A stretch of 64,000 bases of DNA, taken from contig JANNVX010000082.1 in the NCBI GenBank assembly GCA_031414595.1, positions 1 through 64,000 of the forward strand, written 5' to 3'. Each line of letters begins with the position of its first letter. The stretch's first letter is position 1. This stretch comes from Deinococcales bacterium (lineage in GTDB: Bacteria > Deinococcota > Deinococci > Deinococcales > JAAFIG01). A model generated the notes under the pieces. That model was not told where the DNA came from, ran no database searches, and saw nothing but the letters and a program-made list of their open reading frames with translations. Shown here piece after piece: positions 47,001-64,000 of this stretch. A program made the position numbers and the translations under genes.

Positions 47001-47296
47001 GTCAAATCTCCGGTATGACCTGCAAAGCGCTTAATTACCGTACCACTCGAGATTTCACGCAAAATAACAATGCCGTCCCCTCCGCCTGAAGCCAGTAAAA
47101 GCCCATCGGGAGAAAAAGCAACTGCTGTAATTGGTCCAGGATGCCCTGCAAGTGTTGTTCTTAAAACCACTGCTGATAAATCCACGGTGTTTTGAGCCAA
47201 TGCGACAATCCCACAGAAAATAAGAATGCTACCCAGAACCCAACTCGACATTGATTTGAGTAAGACTGTGCCGTTAAGCGTACCAATTTTTTTCAT
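44030..47296 (-). CDS. Secreted WD40-repeat protein (about 20 repeats) with PEGA-like domain
   Basis: GH..V.SVAFSPDG..LATGS.D.TARIW repeats; PGTYTITVTLDGFKPF; Thr/Pro linker. Confidence 0.92.
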   Translation of the reverse strand: MKKIGTLNGTVLLKSMSSWVLGSILIFCGIVALAQNTVDLSAVVLRTTLAGHPGPITAVAFSPDGLLLASGGGDGIVILREISSGTVIKRFAGHTGDLTSLAFSPDGQSLATGSVDLTARIWDVTTGQETKRFTGHTGWVTSVAFSPDGQSIATASEDETARLWSIASEKETKRFRGHEGGVYSVAFSPDGQSIATAGEDKTARMWSVASGLGTRRFSGHEGAVTSVAFSPDGQRVATGSGDKTARLWNVANGQEVSRINGHAGTVNGVAFSPDGQTLATGSNDTTARLWKVSSGEEIERLSHSSRVQSVAFSSDGQRLVTRSGDYTARIWELSSKELSSKEFESLNSNTDVQSVAFSPDGRTLATGGDYGNARIWDVSSGQTINQFIGHKSPVTSVAFSPDGRTLATGSTDKTARIWDVSSGQAIKQFTGHTDQVWSVAFSPDGRTLATGSTDDTARIWDVSSGQTIKQFTGHTNTVWSVAFSPDGRTLATGSGDRTARLWNVSSGQTINQFIGHKSPVTSVAFSPDGLRLATGSPDYTARIWGVSSGQTIKQFTGHTYWVFSVAFSPDGRTLATGSADGTARIWDVTSGQTIKQFTGHSGIVWSVAFSPDGLRLATGSDDDTARIWNYGIPRTWSVLSFQVTKRFAGHTDYVRSLAFSSDSQSFATGGDDGIARIWNAASGQELARFTGHRGRVVSVAFSPDGLTFATGGEDETARIWEVSSKKELKRLTGTVDSVAFSPDGRSLATGGGNVARIWNVSSGQEIRRFTGHTGSVQSVAFSPNGLTLVTASSDDTTRIWEVSSGKEINRFSGSRAAFSPDGQFLATANAESTARIWSISSGQEINRFSGHTGSVVSLAVSPDGRNLITGSYDNTARIWDIASAKEIRKLEGSYGIVFAVAFSSDGTRVATSSIDAARIYSTPDLKPVFDIVKTLATVQIIAPANARISINDQTATSIQTIAPGTYTITVTLDGFKPFTQTITVIARQTIRITATLEPIAQPPTTTQPPPTTTQTASSTTVEARVARILELARAKKITTDQYLAMRDLINARKEPRDLRRYLDNELEESKFLTLVYDGLIEGVPSGKP

Positions 47297-47432
47297 AAAG
47301 ACCCCTTTTGCTTGATTTTCCAAAAACTGTACCTCAGATTGGTGTTACCCGAGGGGATTTGTAGGGTTAGAGTTTGAAGCTGAGGGTGTTGTCTCGAGTT
47401 GGGATGAGTTCTACAGATGGATTCCTTAGCCA

Positions 47433-49877: not shown

Positions 49878-50020
49878 TTTTGTTCTCCTTATACATCAGT
49901 CCTAACACTCATAAAATAAAATTTTTGGACTGGGATAGCTCATGCCATCAGAACCCTATTTCTTTAACCGTAATCAGACCTATCAGATTTTTCATATGTA
50001 CAAAATGTACAAAACCAACC

Positions 50021-50053
50021 CTGAAAAAACCGTGAAAAAAAGCTGAAAAAAAG
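50021..50053. promoter_or_regulatory. Three 11-bp tandem repeats (putative SARP-type sites)
   Basis: CTGAAAAAACC-GTGAAAAAAAG-CTGAAAAAAAG between the divergent genes. Confidence 0.5.
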
Positions 50054-50224
50054 TTAGATCAAAATGAGAGATTTTACAGACTCAGATTATTTTAGTTGTT
50101 TTTTACCAAGTTTTGTTTGAATAACACTATTTTAACTCATTAGTAATTATAGACTCAATTTGCCCCATTCGCGTATTTTTGTTGTCTGTGTCATACTGTT
50201 TGCATTCGGGGAGTGGTGAATTAA

Positions 50225-52129
50225 GTGCGTTATAATTTTTTTGGTTTTGATTATTTTAGTGTTGCGAACCTGCCAAGAAAAGCCTTTGCTTTACTGGCAT
50301 ACTTGGCACTCGAGGGTCGGGTTTTGAAGCGGCAAGTAGCGGGATTACTTTGGGTTGGTAAGCCCGATGCAGTCAATAATTTGGCTAAGTTACGAGCAGA
50401 AATCAATAAGGTTCTTGGTGCGGATGCAATTATCACCAACGGTAAGTTCTTGGCACTTGGGGCAATAGACTCAGATTTGCTCGAGTGGCGTTCGGCGGGT
50501 GCGGCGCGACGTTGGGAGTTGTACGCTGGTGAGTTGCTGCGTGGTTTTGCATTGCCTGAATGGTCGGTTGGGCGTGGTGAGGAATTTCAAGAGTGGCTCG
50601 AGGGGCAACGCAGGGGTTTTGCCTTGCAAAGAATCGAAGCTGGTTTGGATTTAGTCCTAGAAAAATTGGGTCGTTCCGAATTCGCTTCGGCTTTACCGTA
50701 CCTGAGTGTCTTGGCGACTGATCGTTTTGATCCTCGAGAAGTGGCGTTGCGTTGGTGGTTGTTGGTTCTTGGGGTGCTTGGGAAAACAGATTCGTTGCAT
50801 GGGAATTTCAGGGCAGGGAAAGCAGCTTTGGAACTAATTGGCGAAGTGGTTTCGGCTCGGACGCTGGCAGCTTATGATTTGGCAATGGCTAAGAACACCA
50901 AAGCGTGTTTGCAGCTTCTGCAATCAGAATTAAGTTCACTTAGCCAGAAGCAGCCTTTGCCTAGCAAAGTTTTATTTGGTCGTGAAACCGAATGCAAACG
51001 CATGGAAGCCGCATGGACGGCGGGTCAAATTATTCTTATTTCAGGTGTTTCAGGGGTTGGTAAAACCCATTTGGCGCTCGAGTTCGCTCAGTCCAAAGGC
51101 AATGTTTGGCGGTTTCCGGGTCGTCCGAGTGACCAATTTGTACCGTATGCTTTGCACGCTCGTAATTATGGTTGGGTGTTTCAAAAATTCCCTGATTTTT
51201 CTGTACCAGATTGGGTTCGTCTCGAGATGTCGCGTTTAATTCCTAATCTTGGTGGTGTGCCAGCGCCGATGGTCACACCCGAGGACAAATTGCGTTTTTT
51301 TGAAGCTCAAGCCGAAACGTTTGTTTTAGCATGTCAGCAATTGCAATTTGCCACAATGTTCATAGACGATGCACAGTTTACCGATGAAGCTTCAGCGCAA
51401 GCTGGAATGTACCTTCATTCAAAGATGCTGCCGTACCAAGATGGTTTCGCACGAACCATTTTTGCGTTTAGAGCAGGTGGTTTTGCGCCGCAGATCGAAC
51501 AGAGCTTACGGGCTTGGGTTGACCAGGGAATTGCCATTTGGATTGATCTCGAACCACTTTCCGAGGCGGCTGTCGGGCAGTGCTTAGCAGCAATTTCACC
51601 AAAACTCGAGCCACTACACAAATCAATTATGGCGTACACAGGTGGGAATCCAATGCTGGTCACAGAGACTGCTCGGTGGTTACTCGAGCAGGATGATTTT
51701 ACGAGTCTGAGTTTGCCTCGGAGTCAACGGGCTGCCAGTTTAACCCAAGCTCGTTTGTTGCCATTATCCGAGGATGCGTTGTTGTTGTTGCGTTTAGCCG
51801 CAATTATGGATGGGTATTTTGATTTAGAGGCAGCCCAAAGGGTTTTGGGTTGGTCAACAAGCAAATTGCAAAGCCAAGTGCAGATTCTCGAGCAAGCTCA
51901 TTTGTTACAAGCCAATCAGTTCACTCATGATCTGATTCTCGAAGCGGTTTTGAACAGTATTCCAGCCGAAATTCTGGTTTCTTTGCATGGCTTGGCATTG
52001 CAGATTCTGGAGTTACAAGGTGCTTTGGCTGCCAAGTTGCTGATTCATGCACAAGCGGCTGGGCATATGGTGGCAATTCAAAAATACTTACCTCAAGCCG
52101 ATGCCGAAGCTAGAGCATTAATGGTTTAG
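50225..52129 (+). CDS. SARP-like wHTH/BTAD plus AAA ATPase regulator lacking a C-terminal TPR region
   Basis: LLAYLALEG..AGLLW; FGRETE, GVSGVGKT, FIDDAQF, TGGNP, FTHDLI. Confidence 0.85.
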   Translation: MRYNFFGFDYFSVANLPRKAFALLAYLALEGRVLKRQVAGLLWVGKPDAVNNLAKLRAEINKVLGADAIITNGKFLALGAIDSDLLEWRSAGAARRWELYAGELLRGFALPEWSVGRGEEFQEWLEGQRRGFALQRIEAGLDLVLEKLGRSEFASALPYLSVLATDRFDPREVALRWWLLVLGVLGKTDSLHGNFRAGKAALELIGEVVSARTLAAYDLAMAKNTKACLQLLQSELSSLSQKQPLPSKVLFGRETECKRMEAAWTAGQIILISGVSGVGKTHLALEFAQSKGNVWRFPGRPSDQFVPYALHARNYGWVFQKFPDFSVPDWVRLEMSRLIPNLGGVPAPMVTPEDKLRFFEAQAETFVLACQQLQFATMFIDDAQFTDEASAQAGMYLHSKMLPYQDGFARTIFAFRAGGFAPQIEQSLRAWVDQGIAIWIDLEPLSEAAVGQCLAAISPKLEPLHKSIMAYTGGNPMLVTETARWLLEQDDFTSLSLPRSQRAASLTQARLLPLSEDALLLLRLAAIMDGYFDLEAAQRVLGWSTSKLQSQVQILEQAHLLQANQFTHDLILEAVLNSIPAEILVSLHGLALQILELQGALAAKLLIHAQAAGHMVAIQKYLPQADAEARALMV

Positions 52130-52862: not shown

Positions 52863-53207
52863 TTACCGAATTTTCTTTTGTACCCAATAGCAACAAGTGC
52901 TGATGGCGATACCCACCACCAAAATGACTGCCCAAATTGGCAATCGTAGAATGATCGCAAAGCTGTACAAATAAATTCCGACACAAAGTGTCAAAGACCA
53001 GTGCAATGGGATTTTGGCGAAGAAGTGTAGAAACGCATCAAGGTCATGCCCATAGCGCTTCTCGAGTGAGAATAGGACAATGGCAAAGACCATCAGGCTT
53101 GAGACGATACAAAGCCCAATCGAGGCATTGAAATGCACCAGCACCCTTATGGTCAAACCTCCAGCCAGAACTGCAAAAACAAGCAACTCGAGGTGAACAC
53201 TTTTCAT
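52863..53207 (-). CDS. Small multi-pass membrane protein
   Basis: About four hydrophobic segments; ATGA coupling. Confidence 0.65.
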   Translation of the reverse strand: MKSVHLELLVFAVLAGGLTIRVLVHFNASIGLCIVSSLMVFAIVLFSLEKRYGHDLDAFLHFFAKIPLHWSLTLCVGIYLYSFAIILRLPIWAVILVVGIAISTCCYWVQKKIR

Positions 53208-53557
53208 GGTGTCTCCAAGTTCGACTTGCCAAAAAACCGAGTATTCAGTTGTTCTCGTAACCGATGATTCTCAAGGGTGAGTTTGCCAAGTAAGCGCTCG
53301 AGCAGGATTTCTTGGGCTTTTGACCGCTCGAGTTGTTTTTGAAGATTCAAATTTTCAGTCTCGAGTAAACCAGATTGTTGTTCTGAACTTATAAAAGCAT
53401 CATTTCCAAAGCGTTCGTACAAAGCTCGCCAAGAAAATAAGGTTGAGGCTAGGATTTTATGTTCTCGAGCCACAGCACTAGGTCGTTTGTGTTGTTCGAT
53501 GACTTCCTTGACCATTCGTAACTTAAATTCAGGGGTGTATAACTTCCGATTTTTCAT
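53204..53557 (-). CDS. IS3 OrfA-like HTH/coiled-coil protein without OrfB
   Basis: RKLYTPEFKLRMV..VAREHKI..TLFSWR..LERLLGKLTLEN. Confidence 0.75.
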   Translation of the reverse strand: MKNRKLYTPEFKLRMVKEVIEQHKRPSAVAREHKILASTLFSWRALYERFGNDAFISSEQQSGLLETENLNLQKQLERSKAQEILLERLLGKLTLENHRLREQLNTRFFGKSNLETP

Positions 53558-54024
53558 GTTCTAGTCCTTACAGTAAACATGATTTGGTGAATCACAGTAT
53601 CTTCTGTGTCTCGAGGAAGCTCAGTAAGCTCCAAGTGATGCTCGTGATTTAGAGTAAAAGCTATGGTGATTCGGCTTTTGGTTAAAGTCCAGCTACCCGC
53701 ATTTACAGCACTTGATTCAAGAACTTGTAAAAAGGTGGTTAGAGCATTCTCGAGGGTCGTCATAAATTGGGGGATTGGTGTTCTAAAAGCCTGAACAGTA
53801 AAACTTTGGCTATCTACTGAAAATTCAATGTGTACAAGCTCTTCCTTGGTGGTTACGCTGGTTGCAAGGTTTAGTTCGCTTGCTTTGCGGGTTTTGCTTG
53901 CTTTATCGAGATAGAATGCCCATGTCACTTGGGTAATCTGGATTCTTGTGCCTAAAAGGTTATAGGTGTGCGCTAGATTGAAGGTGCTTTGTACCGCACC
54001 AAGGTAATCAATGGGTCGGTTCAT
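53554..54024 (-). CDS. Hypothetical protein
   Basis: Coupled in the operon; start set at MNRPID. Confidence 0.6.
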   Translation of the reverse strand: MNRPIDYLGAVQSTFNLAHTYNLLGTRIQITQVTWAFYLDKASKTRKASELNLATSVTTKEELVHIEFSVDSQSFTVQAFRTPIPQFMTTLENALTTFLQVLESSAVNAGSWTLTKSRITIAFTLNHEHHLELTELPRDTEDTVIHQIMFTVRTRT

Positions 54025-54091
54025 TCTTGTACCCATAGAACAAACTCGAGGGTCATTGAAGTCTTTCTCTTTTTGCCTGTTTGAAGCCCAG

Positions 54092-54679
54092 TCATGATTT
54101 TCTCCATTCGGTGGTTGCAAGTTCTATTTCCCTTTGTGGTTTTGCTGGAATCATCAATTCGATTGGCTCGAGAGCATGGGCTTGTAACTGCTTTCCTAGT
54201 AATCCACCACTGATTTTGACGCACTGATGCAATTGACTCGAGAACCATTGTGCGTTGGTCACACGAAAAGTCACTCGAAATGAAGGCTGACGATTTTGCT
54301 CAGGGAAGACTTTTATGGTCATCAATTGCTTACTTGGATCGAGACGAACAATCTCACCAGCAGCACTCCAAATGGTGCTGGTATCCATTTGTTGATCTGA
54401 AGGACGGATTCTGCGGAGCATCACAGGTTCAATCAAGTACCCAGCTTTATTAGTCCGAAAATGCAAGCTGGCACGATAACTGCCTTGGCTCGAGCCGAGT
54501 TGTCTTAGGGCTTCGACTGTGATTTGAGCGCGTACTCTAAGCCCAGATGCCAAGGTTAGGTGAACAAGATTACCTTTGCCCGAATCTACAATTTGGGCGT
54601 TCAGGAGTAGAAAGGCATGGAAACGCAATCCGACCTCGAGTGGAAGGGATGGTTCTTGGATTGGACTGGTTTGGTTCAT
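54092..54679 (-). CDS. Hypothetical beta-rich protein, first gene of the operon
   Basis: GAGGAG RBS before ATG 54679. Confidence 0.65.
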   Translation of the reverse strand: MNQTSPIQEPSLPLEVGLRFHAFLLLNAQIVDSGKGNLVHLTLASGLRVRAQITVEALRQLGSSQGSYRASLHFRTNKAGYLIEPVMLRRIRPSDQQMDTSTIWSAAGEIVRLDPSKQLMTIKVFPEQNRQPSFRVTFRVTNAQWFSSQLHQCVKISGGLLGKQLQAHALEPIELMIPAKPQREIELATTEWRKS

Positions 54680-54915
54680 TGGTGTTTCTCCTCGCAACAA
54701 TAAGAACAGCGCCATGCAAAGCCCATTGGGAGGGGCGGCGCGGAGCGCTGGAGGAAACAACAATGCCTTATGGCGGTTTGGTACATATTAACTGATTTCA
54801 AAGCGGATTTGCACTTGTGGTGACCAAAGGTAGAGTTTTGGTTGGGTTCACGCAATGCAGTTTATTACTACCACAGTAGACAATGCAATTGGGTTAGACC
54901 AAGTAGCTTCAAGAC

Positions 54916-55152
54916 ATGCCCGCTCGAGTTAAATGGAACATCAAACCACTACTCGAGAAAAACAACATCAGTCCATACATGCTGGCAGAACAAGCTGATT
55001 TGCACCGAGCCACGGTGTACGAGGATATTCTTAAATCTCGAGGGAGTGGACTGAAATTTGAGGTTTTAGGGCGAATACTCTCGGCGCTTGAGGTGCTGCT
55101 CGAGCGAAAAGTGGGTCTCGAGGAGATACTCGAGGTTCAATGGGAAGAATAA
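54916..55152 (+). CDS. Cro/XRE-family HTH regulator
   Basis: LLEKNNISPYMLAEQADLHRATVY..LGRILSAL. Confidence 0.85.
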   Translation: MPARVKWNIKPLLEKNNISPYMLAEQADLHRATVYEDILKSRGSGLKFEVLGRILSALEVLLERKVGLEEILEVQWEE

Positions 55153-55350
55153 TCCTAGAAGCCCATTAAACACGTTTGATAATCCCGTAATTTTTGAGTT
55201 CATGTCAAACAGTTTGCTCTAAGGGATTTTGGTCAGATGCGATTTGGACGGTGCTTAAGCACAATCAAGACTATTTTTTGTAGTGCCATAAGTATTTATG
55301 CAAATCATCATTGGCTTGTCCAATGTTCGATATATGCTTAGAATCATCAA

Positions 55351-55791
55351 ATGGCAAGACCAAAAAATGCACCGCCTAACCAACGAATTCGTTTCACACA
55401 CAACAACCGTGAAACGATCATTTCGTTTGCTTCATTGGGGCAACTGCTTCGGGCAGCGCGTAAATCAAAACAACACACCGCAGAACAAACTGCCACTGCG
55501 ATCAGTCCGCAAAAGATCATGAACCGTGCAACCCTCTCGAGGCTCGAGACAGGTCAGTTAATGCCTAATTTAGCAACAGCACAAAAAATTTTGCAGTATG
55601 TATATGGGAATGTTTATATCTTTCCAGATGATCCTCTTGACTATCAGCCCAAGAGTGCGGCTGCATTATTTCAAAATGTACTTGAACATATGACCGAACT
55701 AGACCCAACTGATCGTGAAACCATTTTTCAAGTGTATAGCGCTTTAGCCGAAGCTCGAGATACGATTCGTAAAAAAAAGGGAGTCAAATGA
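55351..55791 (+). CDS. XRE-family HTH protein
   Basis: LGQLLRAARK..RATLSRLETG..PNL; TAGAAT 6 nt before ATG. Confidence 0.85.
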   Translation: MARPKNAPPNQRIRFTHNNRETIISFASLGQLLRAARKSKQHTAEQTATAISPQKIMNRATLSRLETGQLMPNLATAQKILQYVYGNVYIFPDDPLDYQPKSAAALFQNVLEHMTELDPTDRETIFQVYSALAEARDTIRKKKGVK

Positions 55792-56189
55792 AAACCATAC
55801 TAATCGCAACCCTTGGAGGATCGTATAAAACTGTGGTCAACGCAGTGATTCAACATAACCCAGAATTTCTTTGGATTGTATGTACACCCCAAAGCGAAAA
55901 TAAAATTTCAGATATTGAGGCAGAACTGAAAAAACAAGCCATACCAATGCCGCCATTACTGGGTAAAACACTTGTGATACACGATGACCTTAGTCATATT
56001 TTTAAGCAGGTAAAACATTTACTCAATCAACTTAACAAAGACTACGTTGTGACTTTTGATTTAACTGGTGGAACTGTGCCAATGAGTTTAGGCGCGTGGG
56101 AAGCCAGCAGCTACTTCACAGACGTAATTATTTCTTGGGTTGACAACACTGAACCACCTAAAACCCATATCCTTAATCGCCCTACTTAA
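55788..56189 (+). CDS. Stand-alone CARF-domain protein
   Basis: ILIATLGGS (motif I), P..L.IVCTPQS, FDLTGGTVPMS (motif II); near a type III operon. Confidence 0.8.
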   Translation: MKTILIATLGGSYKTVVNAVIQHNPEFLWIVCTPQSENKISDIEAELKKQAIPMPPLLGKTLVIHDDLSHIFKQVKHLLNQLNKDYVVTFDLTGGTVPMSLGAWEASSYFTDVIISWVDNTEPPKTHILNRPT

Positions 56190-56323
56190 GAATAAACATT
56201 GTCCTAAAAAAGATTTGCAGATATAATTTTATTTTATTAGTTATTTAATGCGTCTGAAAAGTATTAAATAGCTATTGGAAACTCACAAAACAAAACATTT
56301 ACATTAACATACTACGCCAAATA

Positions 56324-56357
56324 GCGCTATAGATGCGCTATTTTCGTATGCTACCAT
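56324..56357 (+). promoter_or_regulatory. Putative promoter of the peptide gene with 11-bp-spaced repeats
   Basis: GCGCTAT at 56324 and 56335; TG-n-TACCAT extended -10 at 56349-57. Confidence 0.5.
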
Positions 56358-56485
56358 TACTGCACGTTCGAGCCAAGCTCGAGGAAAGGAGACACTGTAG
56401 AAAGCCCTTCAACAACTCGCTAGGCGCGGCTCATCCGCCAAGAATCCACCGCGCCCATTCATATCCACCTGTCTAGGAGGACATC

Positions 56486-56617
56486 ATGGATTATATTCAA
56501 AAATTCACCCGCCGTGCCATCGCCCTGATTTTTGCTGTTTTTGCTCTTGGTTTTGCTGTTTTACCAAGTAGCATTGCCCATGCGGAGGATGGTGGAAAAG
56601 TCAACACAGGCGGTTAA
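56486..56617 (+). CDS. Secreted propeptide, 43 aa (signal peptide plus predicted mature EDGGKVNTGG)
   Basis: AGGAGG 5 nt before ATG; MDYIQKFTRRAIALIFAVFALGFAVLPSSIAHA|EDGGKVNTGG; A-x-A cleavage motif; hairpin follows. Confidence 0.85.
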   Translation: MDYIQKFTRRAIALIFAVFALGFAVLPSSIAHAEDGGKVNTGG

Positions 56618-56627
56618 ACCCTCTTTC

Positions 56628-56646
56628 GGGGCGGCATGTCCGCCCC
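56628..56646 (+). terminator. GC-rich hairpin after the propeptide gene
   Basis: GGGGCGG-CATGT-CCGCCCC; no strong U-tract. Confidence 0.5.
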
Positions 56647-56663
56647 CAATGTTAGACTAACCC

Positions 56664-58295
56664 ATGAAACGACCCCGAGCGCCGCTTCTTGACAGTCTGA
56701 ACAGCACTCGAGCCTTGTTGCACAACCAACAAACCAACCTCGCCCAAGAAGTCATCCAAAACGCCATTGATCAAATAAAAACCAGTAACCAGTGGCAGCA
56801 AATCAAAACTATTTTTGACGAATTCCCATTTTTGGTACAATCTTGGCAAGACATTTATTGCCAAACCCTGACTGGAATACGAAATACCAATGCCATTCTC
56901 GAGTTTACCAAAACCATGCCAACCGATCAAACAACCGCTATTTGCCTACTCGAGCGGGCTTGGGCTTTGCTTCAAGTCGAAAATTATTCGGCAGCCCAGC
57001 AAATTCTGCTACAAGTGATTCCGCATTTAAGTAGTGATCGTTTAGGTGTAGCCCATAAGCGCCTTGGTTTAGCCCAATTTCATTTGCAACTTAATTGGCA
57101 AAACCACTTTGAACAAGCAGCTAGTTTACTCAGTGGACGATTGCTTGGCTTAACTTTAATTGACCATGCTTGGTGCGCCCAACAATCAGGCAAATTAGAC
57201 AGTGCCAATACACTACTAACCCAAGCCCTACCCAAACTGCGTGGTGATCAATATCACCTTGCTTGGGCGCGTTACAATCTTGGTGAAATTACAATCCGCA
57301 CCATGAATCCAGATGCAGAACGCCATTACCTCGAAGCTGAAAAACTCAGCCGACAATCAGAAGCCAAATCATTTCGCTCTCGAGCCTTACAAGGCATTGC
57401 CAAATGGCGCAGATACAACCAAGACTTTACACGCGCCGAAGCTGCATATCGCCAAGCCATAGAAACCGCCATTGAAGACAATGATCTACGGGCTGCCTAC
57501 TGGAGTTTAGGGCGTACATTGCGATTGCAACATCGCTACCAAGAAGCCCTCGAGACCCTTGAACACGCCAGACAAGTACAAGCCACCACAGGCATAGAAA
57601 TTGAAATAGCAGCTTGTCAATTGGCACTGGGGCGTTTCCAAGATTTCAAATCAGCCTTGCATGAACCGTACCGTAGCATAGGTTTGATTTTACGTGCCGA
57701 ATTTGCCAGGCAAAACAAAAACGGTGCGATGGCACTGGAATTACTTGCCCAAGTTGACTTTTCGAGCTTAAATGCCAAAGAAGAAATAAGGATTTGGATA
57801 GACTTGCGAACATTTGCCAGCCTTGCAGGAATTGTAATTCCATCAGCTTCACAACCACAACAAGTCAACACAGTCGAAGTACAGGCTTGTGGGGTTTTAC
57901 AGGTGGTGGTCAACCGCTCAAAGATTGCCTTAAAACCAACCGGACGAATTGGCGAATTGCTTGTTTTGTTACTCGAGCTTGGCGGATTTGCCCATGTGGA
58001 AAAAATCATAGAGAACTTATACCCAACAGAAAAAGAAGCCAAGAATAAAAAAAGTGCTGTCTGGGATTTGGTTAAACGTTTGCGCTTAGCATTGGGCTGG
58101 AAAGACAGTATTTTGGTTTTAGGCAACACCATTCAGCTCGAGACAAGCACGAACTGGATTTATGATGTAAGCCTAGCTCGAGATTCAAAAACACCACGAG
58201 CTTTTCTCGAGGGAGTTCGCAGTGACTGGGCATTGGATGTGGCTTTAGAGCTTGGAACACTGGGTTTAGAGACTCGAGAGCGGTATTTGAATTGA
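56664..58295 (+). CDS. TPR-repeat protein with C-terminal OmpR/SARP-like winged helix (putative peptide-sensing regulator)
   Basis: Multiple TPRs (AWARYNLGE, AYWSLGRTLR..YQEALETLE); C-terminal VQACGVLQV..ELLVLLLE..IIENLYP..VKRLRLALG; TAGACT 5 nt before ATG. Confidence 0.8.
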   Translation: MKRPRAPLLDSLNSTRALLHNQQTNLAQEVIQNAIDQIKTSNQWQQIKTIFDEFPFLVQSWQDIYCQTLTGIRNTNAILEFTKTMPTDQTTAICLLERAWALLQVENYSAAQQILLQVIPHLSSDRLGVAHKRLGLAQFHLQLNWQNHFEQAASLLSGRLLGLTLIDHAWCAQQSGKLDSANTLLTQALPKLRGDQYHLAWARYNLGEITIRTMNPDAERHYLEAEKLSRQSEAKSFRSRALQGIAKWRRYNQDFTRAEAAYRQAIETAIEDNDLRAAYWSLGRTLRLQHRYQEALETLEHARQVQATTGIEIEIAACQLALGRFQDFKSALHEPYRSIGLILRAEFARQNKNGAMALELLAQVDFSSLNAKEEIRIWIDLRTFASLAGIVIPSASQPQQVNTVEVQACGVLQVVVNRSKIALKPTGRIGELLVLLLELGGFAHVEKIIENLYPTEKEAKNKKSAVWDLVKRLRLALGWKDSILVLGNTIQLETSTNWIYDVSLARDSKTPRAFLEGVRSDWALDVALELGTLGLETRERYLN

Positions 58296-58399
58296 GTGTA
58301 TGCCACTCAGATAATATAGTTTATTTTGTTTTTAACAGAACGCTCCATGAATGCTTGAAGGTAGTTTGTAGAATATAGCACCAAATTAAAGGAGGTCTC

Positions 58400-58462
58400 A
58401 TGGCGTATATTCACGATTTGGCAGGGGTTGCTCGAGATATATGGGTGGTGCATCATGGCTGA
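58400..58462 (+). CDS. 20-codon upstream ORF overlapping the cas10 start
   Basis: AAGGAGG RBS; MAYIHDLAGVARDIWVVHHG*; stop overlaps the start of cas10 (ATG 58455). Confidence 0.45.
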   Translation: MAYIHDLAGVARDIWVVHHG

Positions 58463-60314
58463 TTATTTGCTTTTGATTGCCCTCGGACCTGTGCAGGACT
58501 TTATCATGACTGCCCGAAGAACAAGGGATTTGTGGTTTGGGAGTTATTTGTTAAGTGAATGCAGCAAGGCAACTGCAAAGACACTTAAAGATGGTGGCGC
58601 GGAATTGATTTTTCCAAGTCCAGTAGACCCTGAAAAAGACCTCAAACCGAATCGACCCGATGGTTTAGGTGTCGTCAATAATGTGTTGGTTCGTGTGGAA
58701 ACGGATGAACAAGGCATTGTTGAATTGGTGAAAAAAGCACAAGAATCATCGCAAAACCAGATTACAATTCTCTTTGAAGCAATTCTGAAGCGTCTTAAAA
58801 AACACGACCTTAATAATCGTTTAGACGAGCAGACCGCTAAAAAGCAACTTGACGATCTGTTGGAATTTCAATGGCTTGCTGTTCCGATTAATGGCAACTA
58901 CCAAAAAGCCAGAGAACAGGCTTCTGAATTGATGGCTGCTCGCAAAACCACTAGAAATTTCAAGGCTGTATCTTGGATGTCAGACGAAATTGGAATCCGT
59001 CCAAAATCAAGTCTCGATGGCGCAAGAGAAGCAGTTACAGAGGGATTAACCCCAAGATCACGTCGAATCAATGGTATGCGCGGCTCTGAGAATCTGTGTG
59101 GTGTTGGGGTTTTAAAACGAATGGGCGCACGAGGACTACAAATTGACGGTACACCATCGGATCGGTTTTTCTCGACTTCTCATGTTGCGGCACTGCCACT
59201 AATTCGTAGGATGACGGAAAAACATACTCAAGCCGTCACAACTTACCTTGGCACTTTGCAAGACATTGAACCGAATATTGAACTTGGTTATGTGCCAAGT
59301 AAGCCTCGAGCTGGCTTTGGAAATTATGATGGGCATCTTCTGTTCGAGTCAAGACTAAAAGAATATATGACTAGCTATCAACTGACTGAGCCAGAACAAA
59401 GAGCTGAAATTGATGAAAAGACCAAATTAGCATCACTAGCCCTTAAAACACTTTTTGATACCACGGGGCTTCCATCTCCGATGCCATACTATGCGCTTTT
59501 CCATGCCGATGGCGACCGAATGGGCGAAGCCATCAGTAGCCCTCACTTAGAAGAGCAGTTTAAGGTCAAAGGGCATTTAGAAAGGCATAAAGCACTCTCT
59601 TCCAAACTGAGTGAGTTTGCTGGTTCAGTGCGTGAAATTGTCGAACGACATTGGGGATCATTGGTTTTTTCTGGCGGAGACGATGTTTTGGCGTTTCTCC
59701 CACTTGATACAGCACTTGAGTGTGTCAAGGAATTAGCCGAAAAATTCAAAGTGTCGCTGCAAGACTTTAAGAACAAAGATGGAGAAGCCCCAACACTATC
59801 TGGCGGTTTGGTGATTGCCCATCACCTTGATACACTTTCAGAAACGCTGCAACTGGCTCGATCTGGTGAAAAAATTGCCAAGAGTATCCAAGGTAAACAT
59901 GCCCTTGCCATCACCCTATGTAAGCGAAGTGGTGCAGATCGAACCATCAAAGGACATTTTACCGATTTGGCGGGAGAATCAGATTTCCCTAAACGAATCG
60001 CATTTTTTACCGATTTGCACCGCAGTGATTCAATTCCAGATGGAGCAGCTTATGAACTTCAAAAGTTGGCTCGAGACTTATCAGGTCTAGATCTCGAAGT
60101 GGCAAAACGCAAAGAAGCCAGCCGGATTTTGAAACGTAAACGTGCCAAAAGTGGAACAGAATTGGTTGATACAAATATGCGCCAAGAGCTTGAAACATAC
60201 TTAAATAACAATACTTTAGAGGACATTGCTCAAGAGATCATTGTTGCAAAAATCTTCGCCCAAGCAGCAGACATAGCAAACGGCAAATTTCAGGTATCCG
60301 AGGTGAACGCATGA
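58455..60314 (+). CDS. cas10: Type III-B Cas10/Cmr2 (no HD domain, intact GGDD)
   Basis: GPVQDFI..ARRTRDLWFGSYLLS, YYALFHADGDRMG, FSGGDDVLAF, LSGGLVIAH. Confidence 0.96.
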   Translation: MADYLLLIALGPVQDFIMTARRTRDLWFGSYLLSECSKATAKTLKDGGAELIFPSPVDPEKDLKPNRPDGLGVVNNVLVRVETDEQGIVELVKKAQESSQNQITILFEAILKRLKKHDLNNRLDEQTAKKQLDDLLEFQWLAVPINGNYQKAREQASELMAARKTTRNFKAVSWMSDEIGIRPKSSLDGAREAVTEGLTPRSRRINGMRGSENLCGVGVLKRMGARGLQIDGTPSDRFFSTSHVAALPLIRRMTEKHTQAVTTYLGTLQDIEPNIELGYVPSKPRAGFGNYDGHLLFESRLKEYMTSYQLTEPEQRAEIDEKTKLASLALKTLFDTTGLPSPMPYYALFHADGDRMGEAISSPHLEEQFKVKGHLERHKALSSKLSEFAGSVREIVERHWGSLVFSGGDDVLAFLPLDTALECVKELAEKFKVSLQDFKNKDGEAPTLSGGLVIAHHLDTLSETLQLARSGEKIAKSIQGKHALAITLCKRSGADRTIKGHFTDLAGESDFPKRIAFFTDLHRSDSIPDGAAYELQKLARDLSGLDLEVAKRKEASRILKRKRAKSGTELVDTNMRQELETYLNNNTLEDIAQEIIVAKIFAQAADIANGKFQVSEVNA

Positions 60315-61510
60315 CCTTATACATCCTCGAACCTCGAGAACCACTGATTGCCCGCGACGGTAGACCATTTGGAGCTGACCCTGGAGCTAAAGCCAGCACG
60401 TTACCGTTCCCAATGCCAAGTACCATAACAGGTGTCACCAGAACTCGAGCAGGCACTGACATGGCGACTGGTCACTTTCAGAATTCTCATGTTAGCCAAT
60501 TACTGTCACAAAGTGTGCGTGGACCAATACTGGTCAATCCAACCACCCTTGAGTTTTTTGCTCCTGCCCCCAATGACGCGCTGATGCTTAAAGATGGCAC
60601 GATTAAATACTTGTTGCCAAAAAAATTTCCAAGAGATGTAATCAGCGACCTCGAGTCAGACTTGATGCCAATGATGTTGCAAAACCCAGAGCAAGAAAAA
60701 CCCAATGACAAAGCCCCTAAATTCTGGCGTTGGGGAGTGTTTGAACAATGGTTGCTTAAACCTGAAGAAATCAAACCAAGAACTTTCCAAGTAACTCCAG
60801 CCACACAGCAAACAAAGGCAGAAGTCAAATCAACTGATCCTGAGAATTTGTTGATTGGTTTTAAAGCACTACCTGTTCAAACCCGCTCTCATGTCAGCCT
60901 AGACCATGATTCGCAAACAGCAATCAATAGTGCATTATTTCAAACCAGTGGACTCGAGTTTATCCATCAGTCCGCTCAACTCTCGAGTGCCACACCGTTA
61001 GCATTAGCTATTGAAACCAGTTTAGATATTCCAAACCAGATTGCCCCTGCTGGTGGCGAACGCCGTTTAGTGCGTTGGGAAAAACAACATGGTCAACTCC
61101 CACAAGCACCACAAGGTTTACTCGAGCAGATTAAATCAGACCAAGCCTGCCGCGTGATCTTACTCACTCCAGCTCATTTCCAGCAAGGGTATCGCCCTAC
61201 GTGGTTGCTAGAAGGATTAACCAATCACGGGATCAATACCCACCTCAAAGCTGTTGCTTGTGGAAGACCTGTGGTGGTCAGCGGTTGGGATTTTGTTAAA
61301 GATAAACCTAAACCAACCCGCCGCCTTGTACCTGCAGGCAGCGTCTATTACCTCAAGCTCGAGTTCTTAGAGAACCCTGACATAAAAAGCTGGTTGAGTG
61401 AAATTTGGCTTCAAGGTGTCAGTGACGAAGCTCAAGACCGTTTAGATGGTTTTGGCATTGCTGCAATTGGCACATGGCAGCCAGAACAGGAGGTCAGTCA
61501 TGCGTCCTAA
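60311..61510 (+). CDS. cmr3: Cmr3
   Basis: EPREPLIARDGRPF, FPMPST..G, LLTPA, SGWD..PKP..VPAGSVY, GFG. Confidence 0.95.
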   Translation: MTLYILEPREPLIARDGRPFGADPGAKASTLPFPMPSTITGVTRTRAGTDMATGHFQNSHVSQLLSQSVRGPILVNPTTLEFFAPAPNDALMLKDGTIKYLLPKKFPRDVISDLESDLMPMMLQNPEQEKPNDKAPKFWRWGVFEQWLLKPEEIKPRTFQVTPATQQTKAEVKSTDPENLLIGFKALPVQTRSHVSLDHDSQTAINSALFQTSGLEFIHQSAQLSSATPLALAIETSLDIPNQIAPAGGERRLVRWEKQHGQLPQAPQGLLEQIKSDQACRVILLTPAHFQQGYRPTWLLEGLTNHGINTHLKAVACGRPVVVSGWDFVKDKPKPTRRLVPAGSVYYLKLEFLENPDIKSWLSEIWLQGVSDEAQDRLDGFGIAAIGTWQPEQEVSHAS

Positions 61511-62813
61511 TCCATCGAGCCCCTCGAGTATCGTTAATCGTAAAACCGATGCAGAACTTGGTTTGGTGACTCAGACCAGAACGTACCAACTGATTACCCC
61601 ACTCTTTGGTGGTGGGGTTGAAGCGGGTAGAAATGATTTTGATCTACCGGTCAATGGAAAAAGTATTCGTGGACAATTGCGCTTTTGGTGGCGAGCTATT
61701 CGTGGGTACAACCAAAACATTCAACATTATTTGGACGCAGACCTTGGTCAAATTCAGAACCAAACCAAGCGTCAAGTTCGTGAGCGCCAAATAACCGCTA
61801 TGTCAGAGATAGACAAGCTGCGCTGGCTCGAGGGGCTTATTTGGGGAATGGCTGCGGGAGATGACAGGCAGCCCTCGAAGATTCAGCTTCATGTGGAAAT
61901 TCTTCAAACAGGTCACGAAATTGACTACAACAGCAACAGTAATAACGTTAAATACGGTGCTTTTCCGTTGCAAACCGCTCAGCACAAAACCATCTTAGAA
62001 GGCGTTCAGTTCAAACTGTTGCTGAGCTGTCCTCAGCACTACTGGACGGAAGTCGAAGCTGCGCTATGGGCGTGGGAGCATTTTGGGGGCATCGGAGCAA
62101 GAACCCGCCGTGGCTTTGGGGCAGTGCATTGCCAAGAAATAGATGGGATTGAGCAACAACAAACCCAAACTCAAGTTCGAGAAAGTATGGCGAAGCGACT
62201 CTCCGAATTATCCCAAAAAACATGGTGTCGAGACTTGCCCCACCTCAGCGCAGAACCAACAAGGTCAGTTTTGACCAATCAAACATGGGATGCAATGCTT
62301 GGCAAACTCAAGGCTTTTCGCCAAAGCCGTGCAAGTGGAAATCCTGCTGGGCGTAGCTATTGGACTGAACCAGATGCAGTTCGAGCTTTGTACAAACAAG
62401 GCAAATGGACATCTTCAGAAAAACATAAACACCCGTCACTTTGGAATGATCCACAAATCATTGCATTTCCTCGAGCTGCTTTTGGCTTACCAATCCTTTT
62501 CCACTTCCGCACCGACAATGATAACAAAGGTGAACCTCGAGATACGTCGTTGCAAGGATACTCCCATGACCGACTTGCCAGCCGACTTATTTTCAGACCC
62601 ATTCGCTGTAAAGAAGGCGATAAGTGTGTCGCTATTATTCTGGATGCACCTATTACACCACCAAGAGGGCTGATACTTAAGAACGCAGGTGGAAGTCCAC
62701 AAGTGCGCCACCAAGTAACAAGCGCTGAAGCTTCACGCATCGAACCACTGAAAACAAGAACTGTTGACCAAGGCGAAACCGATGTTCTCAAAGCTTTTTT
62801 GCAGTCACTATAA
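61500..62813 (+). CDS. cmr1: Cmr1
   Basis: ITPLFGGG, SIRGQLRFWWRA, GGIGARTRRGFG, FGLPI, RLAS. Confidence 0.94.
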   Translation: MRPNPSSPSSIVNRKTDAELGLVTQTRTYQLITPLFGGGVEAGRNDFDLPVNGKSIRGQLRFWWRAIRGYNQNIQHYLDADLGQIQNQTKRQVRERQITAMSEIDKLRWLEGLIWGMAAGDDRQPSKIQLHVEILQTGHEIDYNSNSNNVKYGAFPLQTAQHKTILEGVQFKLLLSCPQHYWTEVEAALWAWEHFGGIGARTRRGFGAVHCQEIDGIEQQQTQTQVRESMAKRLSELSQKTWCRDLPHLSAEPTRSVLTNQTWDAMLGKLKAFRQSRASGNPAGRSYWTEPDAVRALYKQGKWTSSEKHKHPSLWNDPQIIAFPRAAFGLPILFHFRTDNDNKGEPRDTSLQGYSHDRLASRLIFRPIRCKEGDKCVAIILDAPITPPRGLILKNAGGSPQVRHQVTSAEASRIEPLKTRTVDQGETDVLKAFLQSL

Positions 62814-62826
62814 GGAGCAAGAAATC

Positions 62827-63702
62827 ATGTCCATTCAAATGCTATTTGTTCATACCCTTTCACCACTACATGCTGGCACTGGTCAAGGTGTTGGCGCAAT
62901 TGATTTGCCTATCGCTCGAGAAAAAGCCACAAACATTCCCTACTTACCCGGCTCGAGTATCAAAGGGGTATTGCGTGACCTCGAGACAGATGCCAATATT
63001 CAACAAGCCATTTATGGTCCAAAAACCCAAAATGCCAGTGATCACGCAGGCGCAGTGCAGTTCGCTGATGCAAGGTTACTTTGCTTACCTATTCGGAGTG
63101 CGGCAGGTACATTTGCTTGGGTAACTTCGGCATTTATCCTAAGACGTTTTGAACGTGATGCAAAAGATGCACAATTTTCCACTCCCACTAACCCAATTCC
63201 AAATCCAACAGGTCAGATGTGCAGCGTCACCCAAGCCAGTCAACTTGGTATTGGTCAACAGGTCTACCTTGAGGATTTGGACTTAAACTTGACTGCATCC
63301 TCTGAAACCGACGAATGGGCAAAGAGTATTGCGATGGGTCTATTCCCCTCAGAACCTCAAGGCTGGCAAATCGAATTTATCAAACGCTTTTGTGTTGTTT
63401 CAGATGATGTGATGAGTTTTCTGCTTGAGACAGCAACCGAAGTGGTGGCACGAATTACGTTAGAAGATGAAACCAAAACAGTTAAAGAAGGTCAGTTGTG
63501 GTACGAAGAGAATTTACCTGCCGAAAGTGTTTTGGTTAGTTTAGTTATCGCCAGTGACTCGAGATTTAAGCAGCAGCAATTATCGGCAACACAGGTGATA
63601 CAGGCTGTACGATCCAAAACAAGTGGAAAAACAGTGCAGATTGGCGGCAAAGCCAATGTAGGGCGTGGTTTGTGCCGCCTGACCATGCTTGGAGGTGAAT
63701 AA
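62827..63702 (+). CDS. cmr4: Cmr4
   Basis: PLHAGTG..IDLPIARE (catalytic Asp), PGSSIKG, LWYEE.LP, QIGGKANVGRG. Confidence 0.96.
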   Translation: MSIQMLFVHTLSPLHAGTGQGVGAIDLPIAREKATNIPYLPGSSIKGVLRDLETDANIQQAIYGPKTQNASDHAGAVQFADARLLCLPIRSAAGTFAWVTSAFILRRFERDAKDAQFSTPTNPIPNPTGQMCSVTQASQLGIGQQVYLEDLDLNLTASSETDEWAKSIAMGLFPSEPQGWQIEFIKRFCVVSDDVMSFLLETATEVVARITLEDETKTVKEGQLWYEENLPAESVLVSLVIASDSRFKQQQLSATQVIQAVRSKTSGKTVQIGGKANVGRGLCRLTMLGGE

Positions 63703-63704
63703 AT

Positions 63705-64000
63705 ATGCCAACTCGAGACCAAGAACGGGCTGCAATTGCCTTCACCTGCGTTACTAAGCGTATTGGCTGGAGTCTAACTGAATGCAAAGAATATACGAAT
63801 ATGGCACGTTCAGCCAGTGCTTTGATTCGAGCTTCTGGACTAGCTCAAGCTCTTGAATTCATTGATACCCGCAGCAAAAACACACAACAAGCGGTTCTGG
63901 CAGATTTGGGACAAATCGTTTTGCGTCATACCAATCATCTGAATAAGGGTCAAGCTCTGAAAACGCAAAGCCGAAATGAAGTTCAACTTAGTAACTACAT
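63705..64000 (+). CDS. cmr5: Cmr5 (runs off the window)
   Basis: Own translation MPTRDQERAAIAF..EY..MARSASALIRASGLAQALEFI; follows cmr4. Confidence 0.9.
   Translation, partial: MPTRDQERAAIAFTCVTKRIGWSLTECKEYTNMARSASALIRASGLAQALEFIDTRSKNTQQAVLADLGQIVLRHTNHLNKGQALKTQSRNEVQLSNY

Follow-up and report, generated by a model that had tools for sequence, protein, structure and literature searches.

Background

Why does a 43-codon gene with the features of an exported pre-peptide stand, together with the gene of a tetratricopeptide repeat (TPR) protein, directly ahead of a type III-B CRISPR operon? The question is raised by a stretch of 64,000 nucleotides from a Deinococcales bacterium (contig JANNVX010000082.1), which was analyzed as a whole and is called the window below. 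An original prediction, made from the sequence alone, had proposed that the two genes form a peptide communication module built differently from those of Bacillota, with a secreted 10-mer as the signal and the TPR protein as its receptor, and that it may tie expression of the Cmr proteins to cell or element density. Given the comparative and structural evidence described here, we think it somewhat probable that the peptide gene and the receptor gene (56486-58295) are a signalling cassette that controls the downstream III-B operon. The conserved pair suggests that Deinococcus-Thermus bacteria time their adaptive immunity by means of a secreted peptide.

Signalling in which a peptide acts through a cytoplasmic TPR receptor is regarded as particular to Bacillota and their phages. 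To our knowledge, the timing of CRISPR-Cas expression in bacteria is still poorly understood, and the quorum-sensing inputs to CRISPR-Cas known so far are global small-molecule circuits. If the signalling interpretation is true, a second, independently built form of peptide-TPR signalling in another phylum would widen the Bacillota-centred picture. With a signal gene and a receptor gene inside the cas locus, in three subtypes and many species, population-signalled immunity would become testable in cultured and partly genetically tractable Deinococcus, Meiothermus and Calidithermus, and possibly in Thermus. It would also offer a candidate function for unannotated genes of 40-60 codons and for a protein that existing lists call only 'TPR protein' or 'hypothetical', and the short peptides and a candidate operator could become possible tools for switching cas expression.

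A pre-peptide gene under selection

The AGGAGG ribosome-binding site, the 43-codon open reading frame (ORF), the A-H-A motif, the EDGGKVNTGG tail and the hairpin that follows were all located where the original prediction had reported them. The 43-codon product has a basic N-terminal end and a 16-residue hydrophobic stretch, which lead into A-H-A and the tail; the signal peptide was called by eye, from sequence features alone. As had been claimed, the micro-ORF falls outside the ORF track, but it is not invisible to gene callers: public protein sets list it and its homologs as 'hypothetical protein', and annotate the receptor as 'tetratricopeptide repeat protein'. No Pfam or NCBIfam family matched the micro-ORF above the cut-off of that family.

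Between the window, its paralog and the closest metagenome-assembled genome (MAG), the proportion of synonymous differences in the peptide ORF (pS 0.50-0.55) is well above that of non-synonymous differences (pN 0.14-0.19), and the tail codons 33-43 show 5-6 synonymous and 0-1 non-synonymous differences in the same comparison. Since pN is well below pS and the changes in the tail are nearly all synonymous, the frame is evidently translated and selection holds the tail. The 32 aligned peptides of the family begin with basic residues and a hydrophobic core, from which a linker of 0-30 residues leads to a conserved tail with the consensus hydrophobic-(A/V)-x-D-x-P-K-x-(G/C)-x-G-G, in which the Asp is nearly invariant. 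The tail in the window retains the consensus Asp and Lys and the terminal T-G-G. Three tail classes were distinguished, with a terminal GG, with CC, or with two spaced Cys, and the commonest class, which includes that of the window, has no cysteine.

Two other roles for the small protein were considered and set aside. A twin-arginine export signal, suggested by T-R-R in the peptide of the window, was rejected as the R-R pair is unconserved in the family, and a ubiquitin-like or adenylation role of the C-terminal Gly-Gly was dropped because no E1-like gene is conserved nearby. At two loci (L011 and L014), tandem peptide genes with related, non-identical tails stand ahead of a single receptor gene.

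Pairing of peptide and receptor genes

The genome of the window (4.49 Mb in 120 contigs, 94% complete) holds six receptor paralogs with 26-58% identity. A search of sequencing runs listed no RNA run for it, and four DNA runs of a single study from which the assembly may derive. On the same strand, 33-65 nt ahead of each of the six paralogs, lies a micro-ORF that starts with basic residues and continues with a hydrophobic core and a short acidic tail; T-G-G closes four of the six tails, and two contain two cysteines each. The two III-B-linked paralogs, in the window and on contig C69, have identical tails, and the remaining four tails all differ from each other. When the profile of the 32 peptides was run against the 87,242 small frames of this genome, the six peptides were recovered at E ≤2.5e-5 and the next frame had E 2. 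The six sat in the training profile, so the informative part of this result is that the genome has no orphan peptide genes.

Of 364 Deinococcota genomes, 113 carry the receptor according to a whole-genome profile search, and these belong to 16 of 60 genera. The receptor is present in 17 of the 18 other genomes of the window's own family, in 59/125 and 34/68 genomes of two more families, and in 2/128 of a fourth; named carriers include Calidithermus roseus and C. chliarophilus. Among 1.84 billion cluster representatives, 470 receptor matches were observed at E ≤1e-30. A word-index protein search and a metagenome scan yielded 13 relatives and two loci, respectively, and both badly under-report the receptor family.

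The gene context of the receptor was evaluated in the window, the five paralog loci of its own genome, nine loci from a contig scan and 60 stretches of ~19 kb, which together hold 75 receptor genes, two of them at one locus (L081). From the contig scan, L021 was dropped as a copy of L020, and L012 has no receptor match that passes the coverage filter. The 60 stretches were chosen from the upper part of ~150 listed places, with those close to contig ends skipped; lower-scoring receptor places are therefore under-sampled. A peptide ORF was found upstream of the receptor gene, on the same strand, at 64 of the 73 loci with at least 300 nt of upstream sequence present, by a detector with a loose tail pattern that was picked after inspection of the data. 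The same detector found 1/73 on the antisense strand, 1/66 and 1/66 two kb upstream, and 5/70 and 3/70 downstream. A motif-blind filter, for which basic residues at the start, a hydrophobic window and a short tail suffice, identified a signal-peptide-like micro-ORF on the same strand within 500 nt upstream at 24 of 34 homologous loci; the control regions scored 1/34 (antisense), 3/34 and 1/34 (downstream), and 1/34 and 0/34 (within the gene). The receptor genes missing a peptide ORF are those of L068, L069, L071, L057, L060, L090, L098 and L108 and the second one of L081; L057 is the counterpart of L036, where the tail is present and the front is out of frame. The order of peptide gene, then receptor gene, is constant across all loci, and the distance from micro-ORF stop to receptor start ranges from ~10 to >800 nt.

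These counts exclude, at the level of comparative sequence data, the reading of the micro-ORF as a chance open frame, to which we assign practically no probability. Its shortness and the lack of a Pfam or NCBIfam family would fit such a frame; its presence at most loci against one to five in the controls, the low pN and the one-to-one occurrence with the paralogs refute it.

Tail class was also found to track the receptor clade. On a maximum-likelihood tree of 45 receptors, the tail classes require 4 changes, compared with 13.2 when tails are shuffled, and none of 200 shuffles was as low. All seven CC tails belong to one clade (support 100), and six of the seven spaced-Cys tails to another (support 99), with the seventh, from L006, placed separately and on a long branch. 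The tail type of the window matches its receptor clade of 10 members.

Receptor structure

The only Pfam family matched by the receptor is TPR_12 (E 4.7e-13). An AlphaFold2 model made with 45 homologs has a mean predicted local distance difference test score (pLDDT) of 92.3 and a predicted TM-score (pTM) of 0.86. In this model, a TPR solenoid occupies residues 8-387 and includes the N-terminus, residues 403-508 show the strand and helix pattern of a winged helix, and two helices follow. The receptor has no hydrophobic N-terminal segment, and its gene has no Shine-Dalgarno motif. Folded alone, the C-terminal 148 residues also give a winged helix (pLDDT 89.8). The best Foldseek match of this domain is AfsR on DNA (8hvr_I, E 1.7e-5, TMq 0.72; also 8k60), followed by EmbR and then by effector domains of the OmpR/PhoB type, including PhoB, VanR and CovR. 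A sequence profile search of the PDB with the same domain returned EmbR (E 0.012), CarR, CadC and AfsR, and Pfam Trans_reg_C is matched by 13 of 37 receptor family members individually. Pfam BTAD had no match in the receptor. The fold and profile matches to AfsR, EmbR and PhoB confirm the C-terminal winged helix of the OmpR/SARP type that the original prediction had assigned, and with it the unusual layout it described, in which a peptide gene lies upstream, a TPR sensor comes first, and the DNA-binding domain is C-terminal.

For the TPR part, a structural search against 48,161 chains placed RapI first (Z 23.0, root-mean-square deviation 4.4, 308 aligned), in a tie with generic TPR proteins. 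RapH (20.2), a phage Rap with bound peptide (20.1) and NprR-NprX (18.6) are also in the top 20, and the Rap of pLS20 reached Z 17.5. Foldseek with the whole receptor model returned generic TPR proteins only, as did a PDB sequence profile search with the receptor. The sole RRNPP model that the receptor approaches is ComR_TPR, at E 0.074, below the cut-off. When the receptor (45-row alignment) was co-folded with the 43-residue pre-peptide (32-row alignment), the score was 0.03 against a mark of 0.32, in a run made without controls that carries no weight either way on binding.

Downstream WYL and cas genes

Downstream context was counted wherever a receptor gene is followed by at least 2.5 kb of sequence, which applies to 70 genes. 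In 50/70, the gene of a WYL regulator follows on the same strand at a distance of no more than 1 kb, and Pfam finds both WYL and WCX domains in the window's own genome and at seven further loci. At least 43/70 have cas genes within 9.5 kb downstream; the local panel used to detect them is small, so that 43 is a lower bound. These comprise 19 loci of type I-E, 12 with I-C then III-B, five with I-C, five with cas3 only and two with III-B only. WYL without panel cas genes was observed in 9/70. The usual layout of the family is peptide gene, receptor gene, WYL regulator gene, and then I-C or I-E cas genes, often with III-B. All three features that the original prediction had proposed to look for in homologs are borne out: the adjacent micro-ORF, the tail that varies with the receptor, and nearby cas genes.

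The window is an atypical member. It has no WYL gene downstream, it carries a pair of genes for an XRE-type and a CARF-like protein upstream, and its receptor gene directly precedes cas10. Cas genes without WYL are seen only in the window and its paralog L015 among the 70 receptor genes counted; L007 is alike, on a short contig. L015 (contig C69, 13.5 kb) is a second III-B locus with the same head of XRE, CARF, peptide and receptor genes. Its cmr2-3-1-4-5-6 genes come next, and behind them are encoded a 383-aa unknown protein, a SAVED-like protein and, where the contig ends, a fragment of a reverse transcriptase. Half of the six paralogs of this genome precede cas operons (two of type III-B, and one of type I-C with WYL). 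The other three adjoin an S8 subtilase and a large BTAD-ATPase-TPR protein, a MazF pair, and a LuxR-type gene.

Subtilase and BTAD-ATPase-TPR neighbours of receptor paralogs away from cas genes, which recur in other genomes, were seen at L016 (contig C72), L051, L053, L103, L010, L011 and L014, sometimes with RCC1-repeat proteins, and the neighbouring S8 subtilases are candidate proteases for maturation of the pro-peptide. Peptide-receptor-WYL trios without panel cas genes in the 9.5 kb downstream were observed at L056, L066, L070, L085, L092, L097, L098, L069 and L106, of which L069 and L098 show no peptide ORF with the detector. Such trios may be remnants that have lost their cas genes, regulators acting in trans, or controllers of other genes. 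In the receptor clade of L068, L069 and L071, the WYL gene is shifted 0.6-4 kb downstream.

Candidate control elements

A palindrome, TGAGT-N7-ACTCA, begins at the receptor stop codon of the window and exactly fills the 17-nt spacer of a promoter-like TTGAAT...GATAAT. With at most one mismatch, it was found within 90 nt of the receptor stop at 11 of 75 loci (6,689 nt in all), where ~0.1 is expected from the background of 18 sites in the remaining 1.27 Mb of DNA. There are 70 sites in the window's own genome, and five of these lie at the receptor stops of five of the six paralogs. The palindrome is a candidate operator. Between it and cas10, a heptamer direct repeat is kept in three cas10-linked loci; its pattern has five matches genome-wide, two of which are at the window and its paralog.

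Ahead of the peptide gene, a promoter-like site, which gave the best consensus match of the scan (10/12), includes a 9-mer (56214-56222) that does not vary among three loci. Between this site and the start codon lies a 32-nt element, in which a conserved 19-nt centre is flanked by the arms of a 7-bp inverted repeat (fold -13.5 kcal/mol, z -2.0). Two copies are present in the 4.49-Mb genome, both before III-B-linked peptide genes, and one more is found in L007; arms and centre are better conserved than the neighbouring coding sequence. The hairpin between the peptide and receptor genes has a 7-bp G+C stem and a 5-nt loop (-18.8 kcal/mol, z -1.9). It occupies the same position in the window and two relatives, with a compensatory change, and no T-run follows it. 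A search of Rfam at a permissive threshold over 54000-64000 returned no match, and the 32-nt element and the hairpin fit no RNA family described there.

Comparison with known systems

The closest parallel is the RRNPP group (Rap-Phr, NprR-NprX, PlcR-PapR, PrgX, Rgg/ComR and AimR-AimP arbitrium), in which a small gene for a pro-peptide with an export signal likewise adjoins the gene of a TPR receptor. Several paralogous pairs with distinct peptides in one genome are common to both, RapI is the nearest solved chain to the TPR part, and an uptake route of the Opp type is present here too. In contrast to RRNPP receptors, which have an N-terminal helix-turn-helix (HTH) of the XRE type that is absent only in Rap phosphatases, the receptor described here has a C-terminal winged helix of the SARP/OmpR type. 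The peptide gene lies upstream, there is no match to RRNPP models above the cut-off, the tails are conserved across genera, the genes presumed to be regulated are CRISPR-cas, and the phylum is Deinococcota. As it has no N-terminal HTH, uses another class of DNA-binding domain at the other end, matches no RRNPP model above the cut-off and occurs in another phylum, the pair would work like RRNPP systems but is not a member of that family. The RRNPP_detector survey was restricted to Firmicutes and viruses (PMC10075063).

Among SARP proteins (AfsR, EmbR, DnrI/ActII-ORF4), the AfsR module and EmbR superpose best on the C-terminal 148 residues of the receptor, and large SARPs also carry TPR repeats. 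The order is reversed here, however, with the TPR first and the winged helix last (403-508 of 543), two helices rather than a full BTAD domain after the winged helix, no NB-ARC ATPase, and a peptide gene as partner.

Acyl-homoserine lactone quorum sensing controls CRISPR-Cas in Pseudomonas aeruginosa and Serratia. The idea would be the same, namely stronger cas expression at high cell density and high phage risk; those circuits, however, are global LuxI/LuxR small-molecule systems acting from a distance, whereas the peptide and receptor genes described here sit inside the cas locus, in three subtypes. Csa3 (CARF plus HTH), WYL regulators and the sigma/anti-sigma pair DdvS/DdvA of Myxococcus (PMC6061681, PMC11506125) are encoded beside cas operons in the same manner, but none of them is known to involve a small exported peptide or a TPR sensor.

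A census of type III accessory proteins lists C3a198, exemplified by Mrub_1490 of Meiothermus, as a 'TPR protein' of III-B loci with 3 members and no proposed function (PMC6546367). Judged from this table line alone, C3a198 is probably the same family as the receptor; the retrieved passages of the census do not mention a winged helix, a peptide gene, or a link to WYL or type I genes for it. In the retrieved part of a preprint census of CRISPR-linked genes, TPRs occur only in STAND NTPases (10.1101/270033). A full-text search covering the main texts of papers turned up no publication that describes such a peptide-TPR pair in Deinococcota or cas genes under the control of a peptide, and the C3a198 line is the only trace that we found in the sources as retrieved.

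Proposed mechanism and alternative explanations

The interpretation of the pair as peptide-receptor signalling is supported at the sequence level. In the mechanism that we propose, the 43-residue pre-peptide would be exported by the Sec route and cut near A-H-A, which would release a peptide of ~10 residues, EDGGKVNTGG. It would accumulate outside the cell and re-enter through an oligopeptide permease; the genome has 15 matches to the Opp/Dpp-type binding-protein family. Inside, it would bind the TPR solenoid of the cytoplasmic 543-aa receptor and alter the action of the winged helix on DNA, for which the TGAGT-N7-ACTCA palindrome is the likeliest site. Occupancy of the palindrome would then set transcription of cas10-cmr3-cmr1-cmr4-cmr5-cmr6, by either activation or repression. 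The strong ribosome-binding site of the peptide gene, the hairpin, and a receptor gene with no Shine-Dalgarno motif would yield much peptide and little receptor. In the clade of the window, the CARF/XRE pair may in addition sense cyclic oligoadenylate and so add feedback from Cas10, in which case cmr expression would integrate a population signal (the peptide) with an infection signal (the cyclic oligoadenylate made by Cas10).

Several observations weigh against this proposal. No peptide ORF was detected ahead of the receptor gene at L068, L069 and L071, from three genomes of one genus, where the peptide gene may have disappeared or changed place. At 18/70 receptor genes, WYL and panel cas genes are both lacking, so that the family is not exclusively a regulator of cas genes. 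Many homologs have 20-30 residues between the hydrophobic core and the tail, and many carry Val directly before the tail; a Val at -1 and a long linker are a misfit for signal peptidase I, and a second, unknown protease would be required. The tails are strongly conserved across genera, while the pheromones of the Rap-Phr, ComX and arbitrium systems diverge fast, and this conservation fits a housekeeping ligand or a role outside signalling equally well. The association of tail class with receptor clade is a linkage compatible with co-evolution, and it may be plain co-inheritance, as adjacent genes are inherited together. In the structural search, OGT, LGN and BBS4 are within one Z unit of the top and the Rap and NprR matches are no better, which makes the TPR fold of the model compatible with RRNPP-like peptide binding and non-discriminating. 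The 11 palindrome loci include the four on which the pattern was defined, with the other seven matches being independent; SARP-type domains usually bind direct repeats rather than palindromes, and the binder could be the receptor, the XRE protein or another protein. Finally, Deinococcota have a complex envelope with an outer membrane, and we know of no description of peptide signalling via cytoplasmic receptors in this phylum.

The main rival is that the micro-protein is an uncleaved membrane signal-anchor with its tail outside, acting cell-autonomously, and that cas genes are induced by damage and not by density. It might report envelope or secretion stress or phage attack, or its N-terminal end might tether and release the TPR regulator. 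The hydrophobic core is long enough to span the membrane, many homologs, with Val at -1, lack a good site for signal peptidase ahead of the tail, tails are conserved between genera instead of diversified, and the partners WYL and CARF are sensors of infection or damage, all of which would suit an anchor. By the positive-inside rule, however, the tail, which is the best-conserved part, would be outside and away from the cytoplasmic TPR, and the cytoplasmic N-terminal part is poorly conserved in both length and sequence. The peptide of the window also has a textbook A-x-A site, and distinct paralog tails within one cell fit ligand specificity better. We regard the membrane anchor as unlikely on this evidence.

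Two further explanations fit less well than either signalling or a membrane anchor. Translation of the micro-ORF, together with the hairpin, might tune production of the receptor, which would itself sense a phage protein or a metabolite. The conserved hairpin between the genes, the receptor gene lacking a Shine-Dalgarno motif, and the fixed gene order at all loci speak for such a leader peptide, but attenuator leaders are constrained at few codons and lack a signal-peptide-like core and a selected tail, and neither the wide range of spacing between micro-ORF and receptor nor the tandem peptide genes at two loci would be expected; we consider it improbable. The other is that the small protein is the precursor of a natural product (modified, metal-binding or antimicrobial), with the receptor as a pathway-specific SARP-like activator and the cas genes merely sharing a defence island. 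SARP-type DNA-binding domains are typically found in pathway activators, two tail classes hold paired cysteines, and some paralogs away from cas genes have S8 subtilases and large BTAD-ATPase-TPR proteins as neighbours. Against it, the pair has no conserved modification enzyme or dedicated exporter beside it; the conserved neighbours are WYL and cas genes, and the commonest tail class is the cysteine-free one, so a natural-product precursor appears very improbable.

Returning to peptide-receptor signalling, its wider form would be a communication system of Deinococcota's own, independent of RRNPP, that mainly gates adaptive immunity through the I-C, I-E and III-B loci of Deinococcus, Meiothermus, Calidithermus and uncultured relatives. 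The peptide signal would be combined there with an infection signal through WYL or CARF, and paralogs with other tails would be separate channels. We put this forward tentatively, as an account that may well prove too broad.

Locus layout and other observations

The features of the locus are collected in Table 1. Matches to Pfam and NCBIfam models agree with the gene order that had been read from the sequence, a 543-aa TPR protein followed by cas10-cmr3-cmr1-cmr4-cmr5, all on a single strand. The contig continues past the window with cmr6 and cas1 (panel matches) and a CRISPR array at 70754-71698 with at least 14 repeats.

Table 1. Features at the head of the type III-B operon, in window coordinates
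Feature	Coordinates	Strand	Basis or remark
XRE-type HTH gene, 146 aa	55351..55791	+	Pfam HTH_31 E 1e-06, HTH_3 E 8e-06
Small stand-alone CARF-like gene, 133 aa	55788..56189	+	Weak sub-cut-off CARF matches
Promoter-like site TTGTCC-17-TATAAT	56199..56227	+	Right after the CARF stop; putative function
32-nt near-invariant element	56424..56455	+	Alignment; ~30 nt 5' of the peptide start codon
Ribosome-binding site AGGAGG	56475..56480	+	5 nt ahead of ATG 56486; sequence inspection
Pre-peptide gene, 43 codons	56486..56617	+	Sequence features, homologous micro-ORFs, purifying selection
G+C hairpin	56628..56646	+	Between peptide and receptor genes; candidate attenuator or transcript-stabilising element
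Receptor gene, 543 aa	56664..58295	+	TPR solenoid ~8-387, winged helix ~403-508, two extra helices
Promoter-like site TTGAAT-17-GATAAT	58287..58315	+	Overlaps the receptor stop codon
Palindrome TGAGT-N7-ACTCA	58293..58309	+	Candidate operator
Heptamer direct repeat, 11-nt register	58339..58355	+	Between palindrome and cas10; putative role
cas10/cmr2	58428..60314	+	Pfam Cas10-Cmr2_palm2 E 1.5e-32, Cmr2_N; TIGR02577 E 7e-56
cmr3	60311..61510	+	Pfam Cas_Cmr3 E 1.3e-66
cmr1	61446..62813	+	TIGR01894 E 6e-16; Pfam RAMPs
cmr4	62764..63702	+	TIGR02580 E 5.6e-69
cmr5	63705..64000, runs off window	+	Pfam Cas_Cmr5 E 2.3e-11

The XRE and CARF-like genes share a 4-nt overlap, and the pair also stands ahead of the peptide gene at L007 and at the paralog locus of contig C69. 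The matches of the CARF-like protein are all below cut-off (CARF_Card1 E 0.0021, TIGR02710 CARF E 1.9e-4, Csa3 E 0.0029), and the pair looks like a Csa3-type regulator split in two. Cas10 has no HD domain and keeps the GGDD cyclase motif. From the alignment with the Cas10 of the paralog, its start is more likely the ATG at 58458, and the gap from the receptor stop to cas10 is 132-162 nt, depending on the start. An ATG at 58399 with its own ribosome-binding site opens a 20-codon frame, the TGA of which overlaps ATG 58458. In this region (58399-58461), there are ~57 extra nt compared with the paralog, with a CTCGAG within; a small insertion may have created a coupled upstream ORF ahead of cas10.

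The hexamer CTCGAG was found 23,235 times in the 4.49 Mb of the genome, ~1 per 193 bp and 24x the 972 expected from base composition. Examples in the window are at 56367-56372, 56377-56382, 56949-56954 and in the 58427-58440 region, and it is visible in related loci too. Other 6-bp palindromes are nearly absent genome-wide (GAGCTC 6, GGATCC 24, GTCGAC 27, CTGCAG 52). The pattern looks like a highly iterated palindrome comparable to the cyanobacterial HIP1, together with strong avoidance of restriction sites. Further upstream in the window, the region 44030-52129 encodes a 1097-aa WD40-repeat protein and an 814-aa VWA plus RCC1-repeat protein on the minus strand, with tandem DNA repeats of 126-150 nt, and a 634-aa AAA_16 ATPase on the plus strand. 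Positions 53204-53557 hold an HTH_Tnp_1 gene of the IS type.

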